Source of the DNA: Chloroflexota bacterium
Lineage (GTDB): Bacteria; Chloroflexota; Anaerolineae; J102
DNA length: 64,000 nt
Assembly: GCA_013151415.1 (NCBI GenBank)
Contig: JAADII010000116.1
Coordinates: forward strand, 24,512-88,511
Direction: 5' to 3'
Part shown: positions 2,491 to 53,770 of the stretch, piece by piece
Layout of the letters: each line of letters opens with the position of its first letter
Numbering within the stretch: position 1 is the first letter of the stretch
Notes under the pieces: generated by a model
What the model was told of the DNA's origin: nothing
The model's database searches: none
The model's input: the letters and a program-made list of their open reading frames with translations, nothing else
Position numbers and translations under genes: made by a program

Positions 2491-4554
2491 GTGAAAGCAG
2501 GCTCCTTCTCCATTTTATCCGTCACCTCGATGAGACACAGGGATTCTCGACTTCAACGCATTTTTCTTGTCCTCGTCCTTGTTCTTGCGCTGGCGGCCTG
2601 CGTCGACTCGTCTCCGGCCGCGGACGCGACGCCCACGACGCAAACCGCGTTTGAGCCTCCGGCCAGGGCGGCCCCGCAGGAGCTGTGGGTGTTGCCAGAT
2701 GATGGCGTCGAGCCGCTGATCAGCCTTATTGGCTCAGCGCAGAGGTCGATTCGTTTCAAGGTGTATTTGCTAACACGCGAGGATATTCGAGCGGCTTTGG
2801 TTCGGGCGGCGAATCGGGGTGTGAATGTGCGGGTGTTTATAGAGCGAGAACCCATTGGGGGTGGGGCGAGCAATCGTGAGAGTTATGAAAAATTGCGTGA
2901 AAACGGCGTCGATGTGCGTTGGGCGTCGGGACGCTTTCGTCTCATGCATGAAAAAACGCTGGTGGTGGACGATGAAACCGCATTGGTGGCCACCTTCAAC
3001 AATACAAACGCGGCTTTCACTCAAAATCGTGAATACGGATTACTCGTCCGCTCTCCACTCTTGGTGACGGATGTCATCCATGTGTTCGACGCCGATTGGA
3101 CGCAGAGCCCCTATCAGCCGCGAGAGGGTGGCGCTGTGGTTCTCAGCCCTGACAACAGTCGCGCTCGCATCGAGAGCCTTATCGCCGAGGCGCAATCCAC
3201 TCTTTGGCTGGAGCAGGCCTCGCTGCTCGATGACGCGGTCACCGATCTTTTGGTTGACGCCGCGAAACGGGGTGTGGACGTGGTTTTCATTGGGCCTTTA
3301 CGTTCAGGTGAAGAGGATTACTCATGGCCCAATTATCAACGTTTGCTCGAATCCGGCGCGCGCGTGGCGCGCTTGGGCGCTCCTCAAGTCCATGCGAAGG
3401 TCATTTTGGTCGATGAGCGCATTGCGTTGATTGGCTCCATAAACCTCACCTATTCCTCGCTAGAACTGAATCGGGAATTGGCCGTTCTCACCACGGATTC
3501 CGGCGTTTTGGCGCGGCTGCGCGCCACGCTTGCGTCAGATATGGCTCAAGCGCAACCCTTGCAGGCTGGAGGCCCCGCTCGAGAACGGTTGGTTTCTTGG
3601 CGGGATGCGCCCAATTACATGGGGCGAGAGGTGACGGTCGAGGGAGCGGTGGTTCGAACTTACAACTCGGGTAAGGTGGTCTATCTCAATTTCGATGAAG
3701 ATTACCGCACTACGCTGAGCATCGTCATTTTTCGAGACGATTGGGACAAATTCCCGCAACCGCCAGAGACGCACTATCGCGATCAGGTCATTCGGGTCAA
3801 GGGGTTGGTGAAGGAATACAAGGGCCGGCCAGAGATCGTGGTTTCGTCGCCCGAGCAGATCGAGGTTGTGGCTGCGGCGCTCCCATCCCGTCCTGAAGCC
3901 ACCCCTCGACAATCTGCCGAACCGCCGGTCATCTCTTGGCGAGATGCGTCCGAGTTTGTCGGACAACAAGTGGTGGTGGAGGGGAAAATCGTTCGCACGT
4001 ATGATTCGGGCAAGGTGACCTTTCTCAACTTCACCGAAGATTGGCGAGGAACCTTGAGCATCGTCATCTTTGCCTCGGACATAGACAAATTTCCCCAATC
4101 GCCCGCTTCCTATTATCGAGATCGCTTCATTCGGGTGAGGGGTCGAATCAAAGAATACAAAGGCGCTCCTGAAATCATTGTGGAATCACCCGCTCAGATC
4201 GAGATCATGAGCGGTTCGGCCGATGACGACGCTCTCGCCACGCGCCCGCCGCCTTCTACGCCCACCGGCGTGGTCCCCTGGTTGGATGCGGGACAATATG
4301 TGGGTCAAACCATCACGGTGGAAGGGCGCGTGGTGCAGACGCATGACGCGGGCTCCATTACGTTTCTTAATTTTTCGCGCCAGCGAGGGCAATTCGTGGC
4401 GGTGGTTTTCGCCGAAGATTACGAGCGTTTTCCCAAACCTCCGGCCGAGATGTATGAGGGCCAACGTTTGTGGATCACGGGTTTGGTAAGTGAATATCGC
4501 GGCATTCCGCAGATCGTCGTCCGTTCGCCAGAGCAAATTGAAATATTTCCTTGA
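2491..4554 (+). CDS. Secreted or lipoprotein phospholipase-D-family enzyme (two HKD motifs, Nuc/cardiolipin-synthase-like) with three tandem C-terminal OB-fold-like repeats
   Basis: N-terminal signal with LALAAC lipobox-like motif. HKD motifs LMHEKTLVVDDETALVATFNNT and VHAKVILVDERIALIGSINLT. Three repeats of about 110 aa follow, each W(R/L)DAxxYxGxxVxVEGxVVxTxxxGxxxFLNF...SIVIF...IRVxGxxKEYKGxPEIxVxSPxQIE. Confidence 0.7.
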   Translation: MKAGSFSILSVTSMRHRDSRLQRIFLVLVLVLALAACVDSSPAADATPTTQTAFEPPARAAPQELWVLPDDGVEPLISLIGSAQRSIRFKVYLLTREDIRAALVRAANRGVNVRVFIEREPIGGGASNRESYEKLRENGVDVRWASGRFRLMHEKTLVVDDETALVATFNNTNAAFTQNREYGLLVRSPLLVTDVIHVFDADWTQSPYQPREGGAVVLSPDNSRARIESLIAEAQSTLWLEQASLLDDAVTDLLVDAAKRGVDVVFIGPLRSGEEDYSWPNYQRLLESGARVARLGAPQVHAKVILVDERIALIGSINLTYSSLELNRELAVLTTDSGVLARLRATLASDMAQAQPLQAGGPARERLVSWRDAPNYMGREVTVEGAVVRTYNSGKVVYLNFDEDYRTTLSIVIFRDDWDKFPQPPETHYRDQVIRVKGLVKEYKGRPEIVVSSPEQIEVVAAALPSRPEATPRQSAEPPVISWRDASEFVGQQVVVEGKIVRTYDSGKVTFLNFTEDWRGTLSIVIFASDIDKFPQSPASYYRDRFIRVRGRIKEYKGAPEIIVESPAQIEIMSGSADDDALATRPPPSTPTGVVPWLDAGQYVGQTITVEGRVVQTHDAGSITFLNFSRQRGQFVAVVFAEDYERFPKPPAEMYEGQRLWITGLVSEYRGIPQIVVRSPEQIEIFP
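3591..4551 (+). repeat. Three tandem intragenic repeats (about 339 bp each) encoding OB-fold-like modules of the PLD-family protein
   Basis: Repeat starts near 3591, 3927 and 4270. The conserved protein pattern is visible in the translation. Confidence 0.7.
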
Positions 4555-29611: not shown

Positions 29612-30064
29612 ATGAAACGGGTCTATCTCGATTTATGCGCCATTCAGCGACCGCTCGATACGCCGAAGCATATTCGGATCATCCTTGAGTCTGAAGCAAT
29701 TCTTGGCATCTTGCGATTTTGCGAGCTCGGCGAGATCGAAATCGTGTCTTCTGACGCACTGGTCTACGAGGCCCAACGCAATCCGCTGGCGCTACGTCGA
29801 GAGCACGCCTTTTCTGTACTGGAAAAGGCTAAGGAACACGTTTCAATCGGAACGCGGAGTGAGCAACGCGCTCAAGAATTCTTGACTCGTGGTCTTAAGC
29901 CATTGGATGCTTTGCACCTGGCGCTGGCCGAAAAAGCCGGAGTCGATTATTTTTGCACTTGCGATGACCGTTTTTTACGAAAGGCCAGGAGAATGCAAGA
30001 CCTTTCTGTTATGGTAGTTTCTCCACTCGAGTTGATCGAAGAGGTGGAAACTTATGGTGATTGA
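29612..30064 (+). CDS. PIN-domain protein (VapC-like predicted ribonuclease)
   Basis: Acidic residues at canonical PIN spacing: D7 in VYLDLCAI, E in ILESEA, D in [13 protein letters not shown], and the C-terminal TCDDRF motif. GC is noticeably lower than in the flanking hem genes. Confidence 0.6.
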
Positions 30065-30278
30065 AACTAAACCTCTCATAGACGTGAATCGGCGAGCCAT
30101 TCATCTGCTTTACAAGGAGCTCGGCATCGTGGATGCGGTCCGCTTTATGCGGCAGTTTGCGGTGGGTTTTGGCGACTACACCGAAGAACGCGACATCCTC
30201 TTTGCAGATCAGAGCCTGGAGGACATCCTGGCCGAAATCGCCGCAAGAAGAAGCGATGTCTCCGTTGTTAAAGAGTAG
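30054..30278 (+). CDS. Small protein (74 aa) overlapping the PIN gene by 11 nt; putative cognate partner (antitoxin-like or DUF433-like) of unknown function
   Basis: ATG at 30054 lies inside the last codons of the PIN ORF. The C-terminal LEDILAEIAA resembles a DUF433-like helical tail. No confident family assignment. Confidence 0.35.
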   Translation: MVIETKPLIDVNRRAIHLLYKELGIVDAVRFMRQFAVGFGDYTEERDILFADQSLEDILAEIAARRSDVSVVKE

Positions 30279-47515: not shown

Positions 47516-48982
47516 ATGAACCTCTCCTCCCTCAACTGGAACAGCCTACTTCCCGAACTTGTCATCGTCGCGACGTCGCTGATCGTGTTGATCACGGCGG
47601 TGGTGGGCAAAGTGAGCCGCGTGGATCGCATCGCGCGCGGCCATGCGCTGGCCGTGGTCACCCTCATCGGCCTGCTGATTGCAGCCGGGCTCACCATCAT
47701 GCAACTGTCGCAGCCGGCAAGCGATTTCATGGGCATGGTGCAATCGGACGCGCTCAGCCATTATCTCAATCTGGTCATCTTGTTGGCCGCGGCGCTGGCG
47801 GTGTTGCTGGCCTGGGACTATCTGGGACGATTCACCTACAGCTTCAGCGAATTCTATTCCCTCTTGCTCCTGGCCGTGGCCGGGATGATGTTCTTGGGCA
47901 AATCGACCGAGCTGATCACGCTTTTCGTCAGCCTGGAGATTCTCTCCATCTCCCTCTATATCCTCACCGGTTTCAATCGCCACCAGCTGGCCAGCGCCGA
48001 GGCGTCGCTCAAGTATTTTCTGTTGGGCGCGTTTGCATCGGGGTTCATCGTCTATGGCGCGGCTCTGCTCTACGGCGATACGGGGAGCACCTGGTTCTCG
48101 GACATCGCGGCCAACGCGTCGGGCGGCTTCCTCACCCTGGCCGGATTCGCGTTGTTGCTGGTGGGATTCGCGTTCAAGATCGCTGCGGTTCCCTTCCACA
48201 TGTGGACGCCGGACGCGTATCAGGGCGCGCCCACGCCGGTGACGGCCTTCATGTCGGTGGGGACCAAGGCCGCGGCCCTGGTTGCGCTCTTCCGCGTGTT
48301 GCAGAGCGCGGTCAGCGCGCCATACGAAACCTGGGCCTGGGCGCTGGCCATTCTCTCGCTGCTCACCATGACCGTGGGCAATGTGGCCGCGCTGCGTCAG
48401 ACCAGCATCAAGCGTCTGCTGGCCTATAGCTCCATTGCCCAGGCCGGTTATATGCTCATCGGACTGGTCGCGGGCACGGTGCTGGGCCTGCAAGCCATGC
48501 TGTTTTATCTCTTCGCCTACGCGTTCATGAACATCGGCGCGTTTGCGTGCGCGTCCTTGCTGGAAAGCGACGATTGGAGCGAGCTTCAGGACGCAAGCAT
48601 GGCCAACGCCCGCGGCCTTTTCAGCCGTCAGCCCTTGCTTGCCACGGCCCTGGCCATCTTCATGTTTTCCCTGGCCGGCATCCCGCCCCTGGCCGGATTC
48701 TTCGGCAAGCTTTATCTCTTCGACGCGGCCATCGACGCGGGCTGGCTGTGGCTGGCCCTGGTTGCAGTCATCAACAGCGTGATCAGCGCTTATTACTACA
48801 TGCGCGTGGTCGTGGTCATGTTCATGGAAGCGCCCGATGAATCCACCCGCGTGCGTCTACCCATCCCCGATTCGGCCATCCTGGCCATCGTCATCGCGGT
48901 GTTGGGCGCGCTTTTGCTGGGCATCCTGGCCGGACCGAGCTTCGCGTCGTTGGGACAGGCCGTGGTGGCATGGCGGTTTTGA
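47516..48982 (+). CDS. nuoN: NADH-quinone oxidoreductase subunit N (antiporter-like)
   Basis: 14-TM protein with the conserved HMWTPDAYQGAPTPVTAF. Confidence 0.9.
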   Translation: MNLSSLNWNSLLPELVIVATSLIVLITAVVGKVSRVDRIARGHALAVVTLIGLLIAAGLTIMQLSQPASDFMGMVQSDALSHYLNLVILLAAALAVLLAWDYLGRFTYSFSEFYSLLLLAVAGMMFLGKSTELITLFVSLEILSISLYILTGFNRHQLASAEASLKYFLLGAFASGFIVYGAALLYGDTGSTWFSDIAANASGGFLTLAGFALLLVGFAFKIAAVPFHMWTPDAYQGAPTPVTAFMSVGTKAAALVALFRVLQSAVSAPYETWAWALAILSLLTMTVGNVAALRQTSIKRLLAYSSIAQAGYMLIGLVAGTVLGLQAMLFYLFAYAFMNIGAFACASLLESDDWSELQDASMANARGLFSRQPLLATALAIFMFSLAGIPPLAGFFGKLYLFDAAIDAGWLWLALVAVINSVISAYYYMRVVVVMFMEAPDESTRVRLPIPDSAILAIVIAVLGALLLGILAGPSFASLGQAVVAWRF

Positions 48983-49156
48983 GGGTAATCGAAAGTTTTC
49001 GCCTGAGGAAATTGACGCCTTGATAGACTGGCTACGTAAATCGATCGGGGTCGTAATGGAATACGGCTTAAAAGAATAGACATGGCATCGAAACTTCACC
49101 TTACGAAGCGCGCGTAAATCGCCAAGCGTTTCTCGTTCTTGGGTGAATTGTCGCGA

Positions 49157-49217
49157 AGCCCTCGTATGTATGAGGGTTTAAGTCGGCTCAGTTGAGTCGC
49201 ACTTGGCGTGAAGTGCG
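49157..49217 (+). terminator. Two consecutive hairpins downstream of nuoN (CCCTCgta...tatGAGGG then TTTA; CGCACTT-ggcgtg-AAGTGCG). Candidate operon terminator, with no strong U-tract.
   Basis: Inverted repeats read at 49159-49176 and 49198-49217. The second has a perfect 7-bp stem. Confidence 0.3.
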
Positions 49218-49285
49218 ATGCAACTATCACAGACATTCACGCGCCGCCGGCTAAAACGATGGAGTCACGGCGGATTTTGACAAAG

Positions 49286-49315
49286 TTGAGAAGATGGCCA
49301 ATGGCAAGGTATAAT
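49286..49315 (+). promoter_or_regulatory. Candidate promoter of the ATPase/DUF4276 pair (TTGAGA, 18 nt, TATAAT)
   Basis: -10 TATAAT at 49310-49315 and -35-like TTGAGA at 49286-49291. A perfect TTGACA at 49277-49282 is 27 nt away and was not used. Confidence 0.35.
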
Positions 49316-49354
49316 CTTTCCGCATATGCTCCAAATCGAGTATAAACCGAGGCA

Positions 49355-50497
49355 ATGACGCGAGGGTCACTGATGGCATCTCTTCTGTTGGAAAGCATAA
49401 CACTTCAAGGTTACAAATCCATACGCGAGGCCAAGATCGCGTTAGCCCCTATCAACGTGCTCATCGGAGCCAATGGTTCGGGGAAGTCCAATTTCATTAC
49501 CCTTTTCAGGTTCATGAACAGAGTTATGAACCTGGGAATGCAGAAACATGTGGCCCAGGCGGGAGGAGCCGACCAGATACTTCATTACGGTCGCAAGACC
49601 ACAGAACGCCTATACATCGAATTGTGGTTCCGCACAGGCGAGAACACCGCGAATGGTTATGCCTGCTCACTCATCCCGACCGCCGAAGACTTGCTTGTGT
49701 TCGACGAAGAACGCATTTTTTTCCACGATCGCCGGCGTTACGGACGACCATACGAAAGCAAGGCGTCCACCAAAGTGCACGACGAGACGAGGTTGCTCGA
49801 TTGGCACCAGAATAAAGACCAAGTTGCACACTATGTGTTAAGAGCGCTGCGTTCGTGGCAGCTCTACCACTTCCACGACACCAGCGAAACAGCCCGTGTC
49901 AAGCAAACGGGTGACATCCACGACAACCTGTTTCTCCGCCCTGATGCATCGAATCTGGCGGCTTATCTCTTCCTACTGCGTGAGACAGAGCCCGAATACT
50001 ACCATAATATTGTGGAAACTGTTCGGATGGCCGCGCCCTTTTTCGGTGATTTTGTCTTGCGTCCCTCCCCATTCAATCCCGAAAAAATCCGCCTCGAATG
50101 GCAAGAGCGGGGATCAGACATCCTTTTTGGCCCGCACACACTGTCCGATGGAACGCTGCGTTTCATTTGTCTGACGACCCTATTCTTACAGCCACCGGAC
50201 CGCTTGCCGGCAACCATTGTCTTGGACGAACCTGAATTGGGTCTTCATCCATTCGCGATCACGCTCCTGGCCAACATGATTCGAAGCGTTTCCGAACACA
50301 CCCAGGTCATCCTCGCCACACAATCTGTCACCCTGGTGAACCAATTCGCCCCGCAAGACATCCTTGTCGCCGACCGCATCAAAGGGGAATCCATCTTCCG
50401 TCGTTTGTCTGAGGAAGAGATGATCGCCTGGTTGGAAGATTACGGCCTTGGAGATCTATGGGAGAAAAACCTATTGGGAGGACGGCCGGCGTTATGA
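49355..50497 (+). CDS. ABC-type (AAA_21/AAA_15-like) ATPase, first gene of a two-gene putative defence module
   Basis: Walker A GANGSGKSN, signature-like LSDGTLRF, Walker B IVLDEPELGLHP and H-loop ILATQS. The gene is lower-GC than its surroundings. The start could be M1 or M7. Confidence 0.75.
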   Translation: MTRGSLMASLLLESITLQGYKSIREAKIALAPINVLIGANGSGKSNFITLFRFMNRVMNLGMQKHVAQAGGADQILHYGRKTTERLYIELWFRTGENTANGYACSLIPTAEDLLVFDEERIFFHDRRRYGRPYESKASTKVHDETRLLDWHQNKDQVAHYVLRALRSWQLYHFHDTSETARVKQTGDIHDNLFLRPDASNLAAYLFLLRETEPEYYHNIVETVRMAAPFFGDFVLRPSPFNPEKIRLEWQERGSDILFGPHTLSDGTLRFICLTTLFLQPPDRLPATIVLDEPELGLHPFAITLLANMIRSVSEHTQVILATQSVTLVNQFAPQDILVADRIKGESIFRRLSEEEMIAWLEDYGLGDLWEKNLLGGRPAL

Positions 50498-51162
50498 AGA
50501 AGGTGCTGATCTATGTGGAAGGCCAAACAGAGGAGACCTTTGTGCGCGATGTGGTGGGACCCTTCTTGGCGGACAAACATATATATTTGGTTCCTATTCT
50601 GGCTCGAACCAAACGCACCCGATCTGGTCGCGCTTTCAAAGGCGGAATTGTCTCATACAAACAGGTGCGAAGGGATATCATTCGCATATTAAACGACAGC
50701 AGTGCAAGCTTAGTCACTACGATGATTGATTACTACGGACTACCCAACGATTTTCCCGGCAAATCCAACATGCCGTCGGGAACGCCATACCAACGAGTCA
50801 CCCACCTGGAAGACGCTTTTCGGCGCGATATCAGTCATCCCCGGTTTACTCCTTTTCTGACGCTACACGAATTTGAGGCGTTGCTGTTTGCTCAGCCAGA
50901 GGAAATTTTACGCGCCTTTCCCGAAACACCACAAGCAGACCGCCTGATAACCGAACTGTCGAAGGCTTCCCCTGAAGAAATCAACGAAGGGCCGCAGACC
51001 CATCCGGCCGCACGGATCATCCGCTATATCCCGCATTACAGAAAGCCTTTGCACGGTCCGATAATCACGCGTCGAATAGGGCTATCAGTGATTCGTTCCA
51101 AATGCCCGCATTTTGACCAATGGGTGACCTTGTTGGAAACACCCATCAACCGAAAAACTTGA
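50494..51162 (+). CDS. DUF4276-like protein (predicted Toprim/RloB-like nuclease partner of the ABC ATPase)
   Basis: ATGA start/stop overlap with the upstream ATPase (translational coupling). N-terminal MKKVLIYVEGQTEETF is typical of DUF4276 proteins. Length is 222 aa. The family call is from recall of the motif, not from an HMM. Confidence 0.55.
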   Translation: MKKVLIYVEGQTEETFVRDVVGPFLADKHIYLVPILARTKRTRSGRAFKGGIVSYKQVRRDIIRILNDSSASLVTTMIDYYGLPNDFPGKSNMPSGTPYQRVTHLEDAFRRDISHPRFTPFLTLHEFEALLFAQPEEILRAFPETPQADRLITELSKASPEEINEGPQTHPAARIIRYIPHYRKPLHGPIITRRIGLSVIRSKCPHFDQWVTLLETPINRKT

Positions 51163-51185
51163 ACGTGATAGTTTTAGGAGGCGAT

Positions 51186-51500
51186 ATGATTGTTCGCATG
51201 TGGCATGGCCGCGTTCCAACAAGCAAAGCTCAGGAATATCGAGCGTTTCTCAATGCGCGAGCGATACCCGACTATCAATCGGTCGAGGGCAACATCAGCG
51301 TTCACATTCTCGAGCGAACCGAGGGCGAAGTCACCCATTTCATCACCATGACATTCTGGGAAAGCCTGGACGCGATTAAAGCGTTCGCCGGGGAAGACAT
51401 CGAGGCTGCGAAATACTATCCCGAAGACAAAGACTTCCTGCTCGAGTTCGAACCCCGCGTCGTGCATTACGAAGTGGTGGGGCGATCGAAACCAAGCTGA
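51186..51500 (+). CDS. Antibiotic-biosynthesis-monooxygenase (ABM/Dabb)-like small protein
   Basis: About 105 aa with a ferredoxin-like beta-alpha-beta pattern (MIVRMWHGRV...HFITMTFWESLDAIKAF). Start trimmed to the ATG at 51186. Confidence 0.45.
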   Translation: MIVRMWHGRVPTSKAQEYRAFLNARAIPDYQSVEGNISVHILERTEGEVTHFITMTFWESLDAIKAFAGEDIEAAKYYPEDKDFLLEFEPRVVHYEVVGRSKPS

Positions 51501-51511
51501 ACCCTCTTTCC

Positions 51512-52498
51512 ATGGGGACAAAACTTGAAAATTCAGCGCGCCTCTGGTTTAATGATGCACGCGCCCGATCGAGCAAGAGAGATCGGGCCGCGTTGTTTAT
51601 GATCAGAAATCCCTCACGCCACAATACCCTCTTCTTTTTGCTCACATTTATGGTCGCGGCCCTGGCCTTGACATTTGCCGCGCCCATGATTGCGGGGGCA
51701 TATCCGTGTGATATTGATTGGGATATGGGGGAGCGCGGATTCTGTGTGCGTCCGCCCACGCCCGAACCCGGGCCGGGTTGGTTCACTTATACAGTGAAAG
51801 CGGGCGATACGTTGTGGTCGATTGCCGCGCGTTATCAGTTGGATGTGGACACCCTGCGCTATAGCAATCCCGCGCTCATGCGAAACCCCGATCGCCTGGC
51901 CATTGGCGAGCAGGTGCGGATTTTGCCAATTCTGGGCGCGATCCACCGAGTGAAACAAGGCGAGAGCCTGGAAGATATCGCCCAACGTTGGAATGTGACG
52001 CCGGAAGAAATTCGGAACTATCCCGCCAATCGCGCGCGCGTTCGGCGGCTAAAATCCGGGGATGAGCTCGTCATTCCCGGCGGTTATCTGGAATTGAACA
52101 TCCCCCCACCCGCGCCTTCTCCTGGCTCGACCTTCGCCTGGCCCTTGCGTGGATGGATAACCCAAGGGTATTCGGCCAAACATCGCGCTCTGGATATCGC
52201 CACGGCTTATGCCGCGCCCGTGTACGCAGTCGGCGATGGCGTGGTGGCTCGCGCGGGTTGGTTGTTCACTGGCTACGGTTATTCGGTCATTATTAACCAC
52301 GGCAACGGGCTGCAAACGCTTTATTCCCATATGAAGGGCCCGCTTGTGCGCGTGGGCGCACGCGTCAAGCGAGGCCAAATGATCGGCCAGGTGGGTTCGA
52401 CGGGTCGCTCCACCGGGCCGCATGTGCATTTCGAGGTGCGAAAGAATAACGTTCGCGTTGATCCTACCCCCTATCTTCCCCCGCCGCCTCCGCGTTGA
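51512..52498 (+). CDS. Secreted peptidase with two LysM domains and a C-terminal M23 domain
   Basis: LysM1 YTVKAGDTLWSIAARYQLDVDTLRYSNP and LysM2 HRVKQGESLEDIAQRWNVTPEEIRNYP. M23 motifs HRALDIAT...IINHGNGLQTLYSHM...GSTGRSTGPHVHFEV. Confidence 0.8.
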   Translation: MGTKLENSARLWFNDARARSSKRDRAALFMIRNPSRHNTLFFLLTFMVAALALTFAAPMIAGAYPCDIDWDMGERGFCVRPPTPEPGPGWFTYTVKAGDTLWSIAARYQLDVDTLRYSNPALMRNPDRLAIGEQVRILPILGAIHRVKQGESLEDIAQRWNVTPEEIRNYPANRARVRRLKSGDELVIPGGYLELNIPPPAPSPGSTFAWPLRGWITQGYSAKHRALDIATAYAAPVYAVGDGVVARAGWLFTGYGYSVIINHGNGLQTLYSHMKGPLVRVGARVKRGQMIGQVGSTGRSTGPHVHFEVRKNNVRVDPTPYLPPPPPR

Positions 52499-52649: not shown

Positions 52650-53207
52650 TTAATCGCCGGACGCAGAATGCGCAGGCGTGGGCGAGGGCGTGGGGGTTTC
52701 GGTTGGCGCAGGAGTTGGGCTGGGCGTGGGCGAAGGCGTGGGCGTTGATGTGGGGGTGGGTGAAGGCGTGGGGGTGTTGGTGGGCGGCGGAAAGAGCAGG
52801 GGCGTGTCGCTTTGCGGTTGCGAGGGCGCCAATGGCTGCACAACGGGAGGGCCGAGAGGGAAATCGCCTCGCCACATAAAGGTGAGCAGCGCGGCCAACA
52901 CCAACACGGCGAAAGCTGGCGCGGCCCACGCCAGGAGACGGTTCAAGCGGCCCCCGCGAGAGGCCGACGCCTGTCGCGCCGCGCTTTCGGCCGCCGCGGT
53001 GAGAAAGGCCGAGCGTCCCGGACGCAATCCATGCGGGGGCGGGGGCGCGTCGGCCAGGCTGTGTTGCACCTGACGAGCGACAAAGATCAGCGCGCGCTCC
53101 TCCGCGGGCAATTGCTGCATTGTCGCGCCGCTCTTGCCCTCGATAAGTTCGTCGATGGCTCGATCGAGCAGCAGGTCTCGGTCGGCTGAAGATGGGCGAA
53201 TGTTCAT
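52650..53207 (-). CDS. Anti-sigma factor (single TM, Pro/Thr-rich extracytoplasmic tail)
   Basis: 4-nt overlap with the upstream ECF sigma gene. TM helix LLAWAAPAFAVLVLAALLTFMW and a PTPSPTPTSTPTPSPTP tail. Confidence 0.55.
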   Translation of the reverse strand: MNIRPSSADRDLLLDRAIDELIEGKSGATMQQLPAEERALIFVARQVQHSLADAPPPPHGLRPGRSAFLTAAAESAARQASASRGGRLNRLLAWAAPAFAVLVLAALLTFMWRGDFPLGPPVVQPLAPSQPQSDTPLLFPPPTNTPTPSPTPTSTPTPSPTPSPTPAPTETPTPSPTPAHSASGD

Positions 53208-53770
53208 TGCACAAGGGTTGGGGAGAGGATTTTGCGCAAATTAGCCAGCCCGCGGCGTTGAAGCGCTCGTACGGCCTCTTCAGTCTTGCCCAAAATCGCG
53301 GCCACTTGAGGCGCGGTCATTCCTTCGCCAAATCGAAGCAAAATAACGTCTCGTTGATCATCGGTCAACTGATCAATGGCCTTTCGTAGCGTCTCGCTCT
53401 GTAGGCGCTGCCCTACAAGATGCTCCGGGTGCGATTCGGGCGGCATGGCGATGCCCTCATGCAGACTGCTGGTGGGGCGCCGTTTGTTGTAACGAGAATC
53501 ATCGACGATGACATTGTACGCAATGCGATAAAGCCAGGATTGAAGCGCATCGCGAGCAAACTTGTCGCGATCCAGCGCTTCCAACATTTTCAAAAAGACG
53601 ACGCCGGTCAGGTCTTCAGCGCGGTGCGAATCGCCAACATGACGATAAATGTAGGCGTAAATCTTATGGGCGTAAGTGTCGTAGATGGTGGCCAATGCTT
53701 GGGGGTCGCGCTGTCTGGCTCGTTCCAGCAAATCCGCCTGATCGACCATGGGCGAGCGTCCTTCGTGCAA
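53204..53770 (-). CDS. ECF-family RNA polymerase sigma-70 factor
   Basis: Region 2 with YRHVGDSHRAEDLTGVVFLKM...WLYRIAYNVIVD and region 4 with LTDDQRDVILLRFGEGMTAPQVAAILGKTEEAVRALQRRGLANLRK. Confidence 0.85.
   Translation of the reverse strand: MHEGRSPMVDQADLLERARQRDPQALATIYDTYAHKIYAYIYRHVGDSHRAEDLTGVVFLKMLEALDRDKFARDALQSWLYRIAYNVIVDDSRYNKRRPTSSLHEGIAMPPESHPEHLVGQRLQSETLRKAIDQLTDDQRDVILLRFGEGMTAPQVAAILGKTEEAVRALQRRGLANLRKILSPTLVQ

Follow-up and report, generated by a model that had tools for sequence, protein, structure and literature searches.

A stand-alone HEC-01 candidate defence gene pair next to the nuo operon of a Chloroflexota bacterium

The question raised by this locus is what is encoded by two overlapping genes that lie in an AT-rich stretch directly behind the nuo operon of a Chloroflexota bacterium, and whether they could form an anti-phage system. 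The window is the whole 64,000-nucleotide stretch of contig JAADII010000116.1 that was analysed; the genes, designated open reading frames (ORFs) 1 and 2, fall within positions 48983-51500. The original prediction, made by reading the letters, had described an ATP-binding cassette (ABC) ATPase with a small nuclease-like partner, of the architectural class of OLD, Gabija, PARIS and Septu, and had considered the pair an uncharacterised member whose known family could not be decided. The class was borne out by AAA_21 and DUF4276 domains and a Toprim-like partner. The family proved decidable: both proteins were matched over their full length by models of HEC-01, which was published in 2024 and has been tried twice in E. 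coli. Judged by sequence, the pair clearly belongs to this already catalogued candidate anti-phage family. The reading preferred here, with a probability of about 0.72, is that of an intact stand-alone HEC-01, in which an ABC ATPase would act as sensor or switch and govern an effector, the Toprim nuclease, aimed at invading nucleic acids. The features needed for the argument are the following.

49373-50497 (alternative start 49355), plus strand: ORF1 (HEC-01A), a 374-aa SMC/Rad50-like ABC ATPase head without coiled coil; Pfam AAA_21/AAA_15
50494-50497, plus strand: ATGA stop/start overlap of ORF1 and ORF2
50494-51162, plus strand: ORF2 (HEC-01B), a 222-aa DUF4276 protein with a predicted Toprim-type fold and a helical C-terminal half
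49286-49315, plus strand: sigma-70-like promoter candidate, TTGAGA, 18-nt spacer, TATAAT, 11/12 matches, approximately 58 nt 5' of the ORF1 start at 49373
48983-49372, no strand: spacer from the nuoN stop to ORF1, AT-rich (48% GC), holding the promoter candidate

Profile searches identified ORF1 as HEC-01A and ORF2 as HEC-01B, and confirmed AAA_21 and DUF4276. ORF1 was matched by the PADLOC model HEC-01A (PDLC04175) at E = 8.8e-148 and 490 bits, with ORF residues 8-378 aligned to positions 2-362 of 363, and ORF2 by HEC-01B (PDLC04188) at E = 5.5e-78, with residues 1-216 aligned to positions 12-225 of 230. All five PADLOC matches of ORF2 were HEC-01B models, and no other family matched it at E <= 0.01. 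The two genes adjoin on one strand through the ATGA overlap, and share with HEC-01 the gene order, strand, two-gene layout, ABC ATPase fold and OLD-like Toprim partner. Embedding in Hma or another modification system, by which HEC-01 was discovered and which is no requirement for its detection, was absent: the copy lies between the nuo operon and the ABM and LysM-M23 genes. The locus reads as an intact stand-alone HEC-01, with nothing unexpected for the family and no new principle. HEC-01 (Hma-embedded candidate 01) was described as an ABC ATPase with a TOPRIM protein bearing an OLD-like metal site, embedded in Hma (Payne et al. 2024; 10.1101/2024.01.29.577857). One HEC-01 cluster, taken from a cold-seep metagenome-assembled genome (MAG), was reported to protect E. 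coli B from one or more of T4, T5 and T7 (Han et al. 2026; PMC12881386).

ORF1 gave Pfam matches to AAA_21 (8.8e-29), AAA_15 and SMC_N, and its sequence-level search of the PDB returned weak SMC3 and OLD matches only. The Walker A (GANGSGKSN), signature (LSDGTL) and Walker B (IVLDEPELGLHP) motifs noticed at the outset were all present, with core residues invariant in 56 homologues; with the ABC head fold they supply the motif set of an ABC ATPase. Conserved positions comprise Walker A G32-K38, YHFHDT at 165-170, the signature S258-D-G260, Walker B D285-E286, Q317 and a C-terminal LGDLWEKNxxGGRP.

ORF2 (MKKVLIYVEGQTEETF) was matched by Pfam DUF4276 (PF14103) over positions 1-192 of 192 (4.6e-52; 177.5 bits against a cutoff of 30.2). 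DUF4276 and RloB have been placed in the Toprim superfamily, and DUF4276 has been linked to Mad4 of MADS, in the Menshen analysis (PMC12065111). The AlphaFold2 model (predicted local distance difference test score 88.5) had a beta-alpha core with strands at 2-8, 30-36, 71-79 and approximately 118-122, followed by a helical half. In the structural comparison proposed for ORF2, Foldseek ranked 6nk8_B, the C-terminal region of BpOLD, first, with a weak match (E 4.6e-3; template modelling score about 0.4). Searching the PDB by sequence with the DUF4276 profile yielded nothing but a spurious coiled-coil match. The N-terminus had been read as DUF4276-type with a Toprim/RloB-like Glu strand; the domain was present at full length, and the Glu that follows beta-1 in Toprim domains was found as E9, directly after the modelled beta-1 (residues 2-8). 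The acidic residues E9, E13, D79, E126 and E128 (and E161) were invariant, H125 and K184 nearly so, and the first five were still invariant in homologues at 39-43% identity. The ligands in BpOLD are E400, D455 and D457 for metal A and E404, T506 and E508 for metal B, with K562 nearby (PMC6755086). E9 and E13 of ORF2 have the E-x3-E spacing of E400 and E404, D79 closes beta-3 as D455 does, and H125-E126-F127-E128 opens the next helix as T506 and E508 do, so that a residue-by-residue mapping onto BpOLD may be proposed.

The ATGA overlap implies that translation of ORF2 is probably coupled to that of ORF1. For ORF1 the start at 49373 is more likely than 49355, because GAGGG lies six nt 5' of its ATG and the JGI model has the 374-aa form; the ATG at 49355 is merely 2 nt beyond its own GAGG. 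A further alternative, 49385, is the start of the 370-aa NCBI model. NCBI already lists the same two proteins, from a Chloroflexota MAG, under the names AAA family ATPase (NOX62485.1) and DUF4276 family protein (NOX62486.1). Upstream of ORF2 an in-frame ATG (MGEKPIGRTAGV..., 50458-50493) would add 12 codons, and is used by some gene callers in homologues P0032 and P0052; it was rejected as the real N-terminus, being a by-product of the conserved ORF1 DLWEKN codons in another frame. The site at 49286-49315 is a candidate promoter by its position and match quality; two promoter-like sites were seen in the region against 2.0 expected, no excess over chance. The 390-nt spacer (48983-49372) yielded no further recognisable element, no Rfam family, no excess of RNA structure (fold z -0.5) and no similarity to any related locus. 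Beyond the nuoN stop the plus-strand frame at 48984-49076 reads GNRKFSPEEIDALIDWLRKSIGVVMEYGLKE* and is protein-like in appearance. This frame lacks a start codon of its own behind nuoN and has neither a Pfam match nor a counterpart in the fetched loci; it may be a gene remnant or chance.

Relatives of ORF2 numbered 1705 proteins in a clustered database; a search of 1.84 billion entries gave 3691 50%-identity cluster representatives with E <= 1e-3, and 2352 at E <= 1e-10. Relatives occurred in at least 564 genome loci, and locus comparisons were made with the best 80, of which 78 had room upstream and were testable. The best 80 came from Chloroflexota, Acidobacteriota, Verrucomicrobiota, Planctomycetota, Bacteroidota, Ignavibacteria, Calditrichia, Spirochaetes, Myxococcota, Nitrospirales, Gammaproteobacteria (Xenorhabdus, Pectobacterium), Cyanobacteria, the Candidate Phyla Radiation and others, at least 15 phyla overall. 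A homologue of ORF1 stood immediately 5' of the DUF4276 gene in every testable locus (78/78), with a 4-nt NTGA overlap in 41 and most of the remainder within about 3 nt. Identities of the ORF1 and ORF2 homologues to the window pair co-varied (r 0.71), and the ATPase was the better conserved partner in 57 of 73 loci. When compared with the three nearest loci, the pair gave a pN (nonsynonymous differences per site) of 0.10-0.28 and a pS (synonymous) saturated at 0.74-0.87, with a top nucleotide identity of 72%; pN and pS are given in place of dN/dS because synonymous sites were saturated. These values indicate strong purifying selection and an old divergence.

Clustering of 384 neighbour proteins revealed no conserved third gene, no family being found in more than 7 of the 78 loci, and the neighbour clusters that recurred in up to 7 loci mirrored shared taxonomy. 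The absence of a conserved third gene and the strict pairing therefore point to an autonomous two-gene cassette. Gene neighbourhoods showed the pair strictly linked and its closest relatives beside restriction-modification (RM) or Hma systems. The two closest relatives (ORF1 84% and ORF2 71% identical) lie directly 3' of a full-length type IIG RM enzyme (E = 0); another has HmaA (2.3e-218) on one side and a DUF1156 methylase on the other, the Hma embedding that named HEC-01; in a Bacteroidota/Ignavibacteria group the pair stands between type III methyltransferase-like and restriction endonuclease-like genes; and a further relative is flanked by dsbA and gyrB.

Three genes of approximately 249, 148 and 125 aa were seen 5' of HEC-01 in a Calditrichia MAG and 3' of it in the closest metagenomic relative (L004:7235-8795 and L168:5001-6567), the two sets being equated by gene sizes alone. 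The L168 set had no PADLOC match and no precomputed Pfam family, and the 124-aa gene of L004 was scanned with no match. The set could be another embedded cassette.

Composition was computed over the whole window. At 51.5%, the GC content of 48983-51500 was lower than that of any other 2.5-kb window across the 64 kb (mean 58.7%, sd 2.3%), with flanks at 61.1% upstream and 59.4% downstream. The dip is genuine but moderate, 7-10 points. The original estimate of roughly 50% against more than 60% was therefore right as to the dip and overstated its contrast, and the dip is accentuated in appearance by the neighbouring nuo genes, whose third codon positions are very GC-rich (GC3 0.80-0.83 against a gene mean of 0.70 in the window). 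GC3 was 0.61 (z -1.2) for ORF1 and 0.54 (z -2.2) for ORF2. The expected codon deviation was likewise found: by synonymous-codon likelihood over 49 genes, ORF2 ranked second (z 2.0) and ORF1 third (z 1.5) for atypicality.

The pair was probably acquired horizontally, as suggested by its composition and codon usage, its variable context, and its 45-84% identity to copies in at least 15 phyla, against no more than 53% for the best nuoN relatives found (metagenome contigs). None of those nuoN relatives had ABM, LysM-M23 or the pair downstream, and insertion could not be demonstrated by synteny, since the relatives are so distant and none had matching downstream genes. At the island borders no mobility gene, no tRNA-type target and no significant direct or inverted flanking repeats were found. 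Of the proposal that the pair had been acquired horizontally and inserted beside a respiratory operon, the acquisition is thus probable by composition and phylum spread, and the insertion left no demonstrable scar or empty site.

Several other known systems resemble the pair without containing it. MADS has a Mad3/Mad4 couple of ABC ATPase and DUF4276-type Toprim, and ORF1 matches mad3 (PADLOC 3.7e-22); membership was rejected because NCBIfam MAD3 gave 97.2 bits against an equivalog cutoff of 420 and no mad genes adjoin. The AAA_15/21 tree of the PARIS paper takes in DUF4276 partners, but the AriA match of ORF1 (3e-28) is far below that of HEC-01A and ORF2 has no AriB or DUF4435 match; the AriB partner is a DUF4435 protein where DUF4276 is found here, and the Ocr trigger and tRNA target of PARIS are not known to extend to this pair. 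The OLD family (P2 Old and TsOLD in class 1, BpOLD and GajA in class 2) shares an ABC ATPase, together with a Toprim that has a helical domain, and the E-x3-E pair and first Asp of ORF2 resemble E400/E404/D455. OLD is a single polypeptide, whereas the domains here are in separate ORFs with the second DxD Asp replaced by Tyr, and the PADLOC Old match (4.1e-16) is partial; OLD membership was rejected. Gabija was also rejected (GajA 1.6e-11, partial; no UvrD/GajB helicase gene adjoining), as were Septu (PtuA 18.8 bits against a cutoff of 500; no HNH gene adjoining) and AbiL (PADLOC AbiLi just 1.6e-19 for ORF1; partners missing). Menshen variants of NsnC with DUF4276 or RloB C-terminal domains (PMC12065111) likewise join a DUF4276 Toprim effector to an ABC ATPase, NsnB giving 1.4e-16 to ORF1; Menshen has three genes, including a ParB-like or NsnA component, and none such is in the window. 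The MANTIS preprint proved to have no bearing on the pair.

By analogy with OLD, Gabija and PARIS, we infer for HEC-01 the formation of a complex, its trigger and substrate, and its outcome, whether abortive infection or direct clearance. Translational coupling would supply HEC-01A and HEC-01B in a fixed ratio for assembly. The ATPase heads would be the sensor or switch, undergoing ATP-dependent engagement on foreign nucleic acid or a phage protein. Engagement would license or free the DUF4276 Toprim protein, a putative metal-dependent nuclease with an OLD-like helical domain, which might nick or degrade DNA (as OLD and GajA do) or cleave tRNA (as AriB does). Such cleavage would block replication of the phage or other mobile element.

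A number of observations weigh against this interpretation. The HEC-01 of the discoverers failed to protect E. coli against any phage of their panel (10.1101/2024.01.29.577857), and the text of the later study states no fold-protection for HEC-01 (PMC12881386). Immediate neighbours in the 78 loci are mostly housekeeping genes; methyltransferases make up approximately 4 of 66 upstream neighbours, and DEAD/SNF2 helicases approximately 4-5 of 72 downstream. Plasmids seldom carry the pair (13 of 72,556) and none of 50,697 phage records does, and the window contains no other defence system and no defence island. Two motifs also deviate. The DxD after beta-3 of Toprim domains was not found in ORF2, where strand 71-79 ends D79-Y80-Y81 with a conserved Tyr in the third position; the invariant E126 and E128 may supply the ligands lost with the second Asp. 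An H-loop had been reported for ORF1; its switch-His site is A-T316-Q317-S318, with Gln317 invariant in 56 sequences, and catalysis may be unusual because Gln replaces the switch His. For this reason, and because of the acidic set E-x3-E, D-x-Y, H-E-x-E and the conserved LGDLWEKNxxGGRP tail, HEC-01 might be something other than an OLD nuclease simply split in two: it could be a switch with slow hydrolysis that first sequesters and later frees an effector aimed at RNA (PARIS-like, tRNA-cleaving), or it could have a non-defence function. This is considered rather unlikely; were it true, the stand-alone copy would be a clean minimal system for mechanism work.

Three further explanations were weighed against an autonomous defence system. 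The pair could be an accessory module that depends on a DNA-modification partner (type IIG/III RM, Hma or MADS-like), for example in processing flagged DNA, and be an orphan here with little or no activity. The same-strand RM or Hma gene arrays in which its closest relatives sit, the discovery of HEC-01 through Hma embedding, the failure of stand-alone HEC-01 in the discoverers' assay and the related Mad3 ATPase and Mad4 (DUF4276) pair of MADS all speak for such dependence. Most of the 78 loci are nevertheless flanked by housekeeping genes with no conserved third gene, and yet the pair is intact there under strong purifying selection; the window copy retains all invariant residues and its own promoter-like site, and one cloned HEC-01 cluster was reported protective in E. 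coli B. Dependence on a partner is on balance unlikely.

It is very unlikely that the genes serve DNA maintenance outside defence, whether as a RecF/RecR-like pair or as a counterpart of Cran1, an archaeal OLD-family ATPase, with a role in repair or cell-cycle control. The RecFR repair system is inherited vertically, and for a core repair function one would expect both synteny and vertical inheritance; the pair instead has a patchy cross-phylum distribution at high identity, an atypical composition and a varying genomic context, with copies within RM/Hma systems and on plasmids. The TIGR00611 recF model gave ORF1 25.8 bits against a cutoff of 172, and RecR is not known to act as a nuclease. 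Little credence is likewise given to a selfish addiction (toxin-antitoxin-like) cassette, in which a nuclease toxin restrained by the ATPase would be kept through post-segregational killing. Tight coupling of the genes, their solitary occurrence in numerous unrelated settings as well as on some plasmids, and the Pfam label of AAA_21 as a "putative AbiEii toxin, Type IV TA system" domain (TA, toxin-antitoxin) would fit such a cassette. No antitoxin-like DNA-binding domain was found in the pair, however, and no autoregulatory operator repeat by its promoter; the larger protein is the better conserved (57/73 loci); and the proposal overlaps abortive-infection defence and is not exclusive of abortive infection.

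Under the preferred reading of a stand-alone HEC-01, the annotation would change from "AAA family ATPase / DUF4276 family protein" to a stand-alone HEC-01 candidate defence system, with little gained beyond this. Since the phage-assay results for HEC-01 conflict, comparative details could steer mutagenesis; the guides are the two-gene autonomy, residues E9/E13/D79/E126/E128, the Gln at the switch site, and the stronger conservation of the ATPase than of the nuclease.

The genes on either side of the pair are as follows.

47516-48982, plus strand: nuoN, last nuo gene; Pfam Proton_antipo_M
51186-51500, plus strand: ABM-fold gene, 105 aa; Pfam ABM 1.1e-5, just above cutoff
51512-52498: LysM + Peptidase_M23 gene

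The ABM gene starts 23 nt past ORF2 behind GGAGG and ends 11 nt short of the LysM-M23 gene, and ORF1, ORF2, ABM and LysM-M23 may be co-transcribed. It had been thought to ride on the same island as the pair. That view was not upheld: no ABM homologue was found within 10 kb of the pair in the 78 loci, for which reason it was rejected as part of the module, and its codon usage is unremarkable, with a GC3 of 0.63 equal to that of the LysM-M23 gene. Among the neighbours in the same loci there were no relatives of ABM, nuoN or LysM-M23, bar one weak LysM match.

The remaining window is made up of housekeeping genes (nuo, ribonucleotide reductase, ftsZ/ftsA, ddl, adenylate kinase and others), together with the following.

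2491-4554, plus strand: PLD protein, 687 aa, with lipoprotein-like N-terminus, two PLD HxK motifs (PLDc_2 8.3e-49) and three OB-fold repeats
29612-30278 (with the next ORF), plus strand: PIN-domain protein, 150 aa; Pfam PIN 4.9e-10; 50% GC; most codon-atypical gene of the window (z 2.7)
52650-53207, minus strand: Pro/Thr-rich protein, 185 aa, no Pfam match; overlaps the sigma factor gene, downstream of it
53204-53770, minus strand: extracytoplasmic function (ECF)-type sigma factor; Sigma70_r2/r4

The protein at 2491-4554 matches the PADLOC DrmC models (1.2e-31), the only other noteworthy match of the PADLOC type; it is solitary and 45 kb from the pair, and a secreted PLD-type nuclease is a likelier identity for it than a DISARM component. 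A 74-aa ORF with no Pfam match overlaps the end of the PIN gene, and together they might constitute a toxin pair of the VapC type, and with it a second small islet of low GC. The 185-aa Pro/Thr-rich protein is probably the anti-sigma factor of the sigma factor encoded at 53204-53770.

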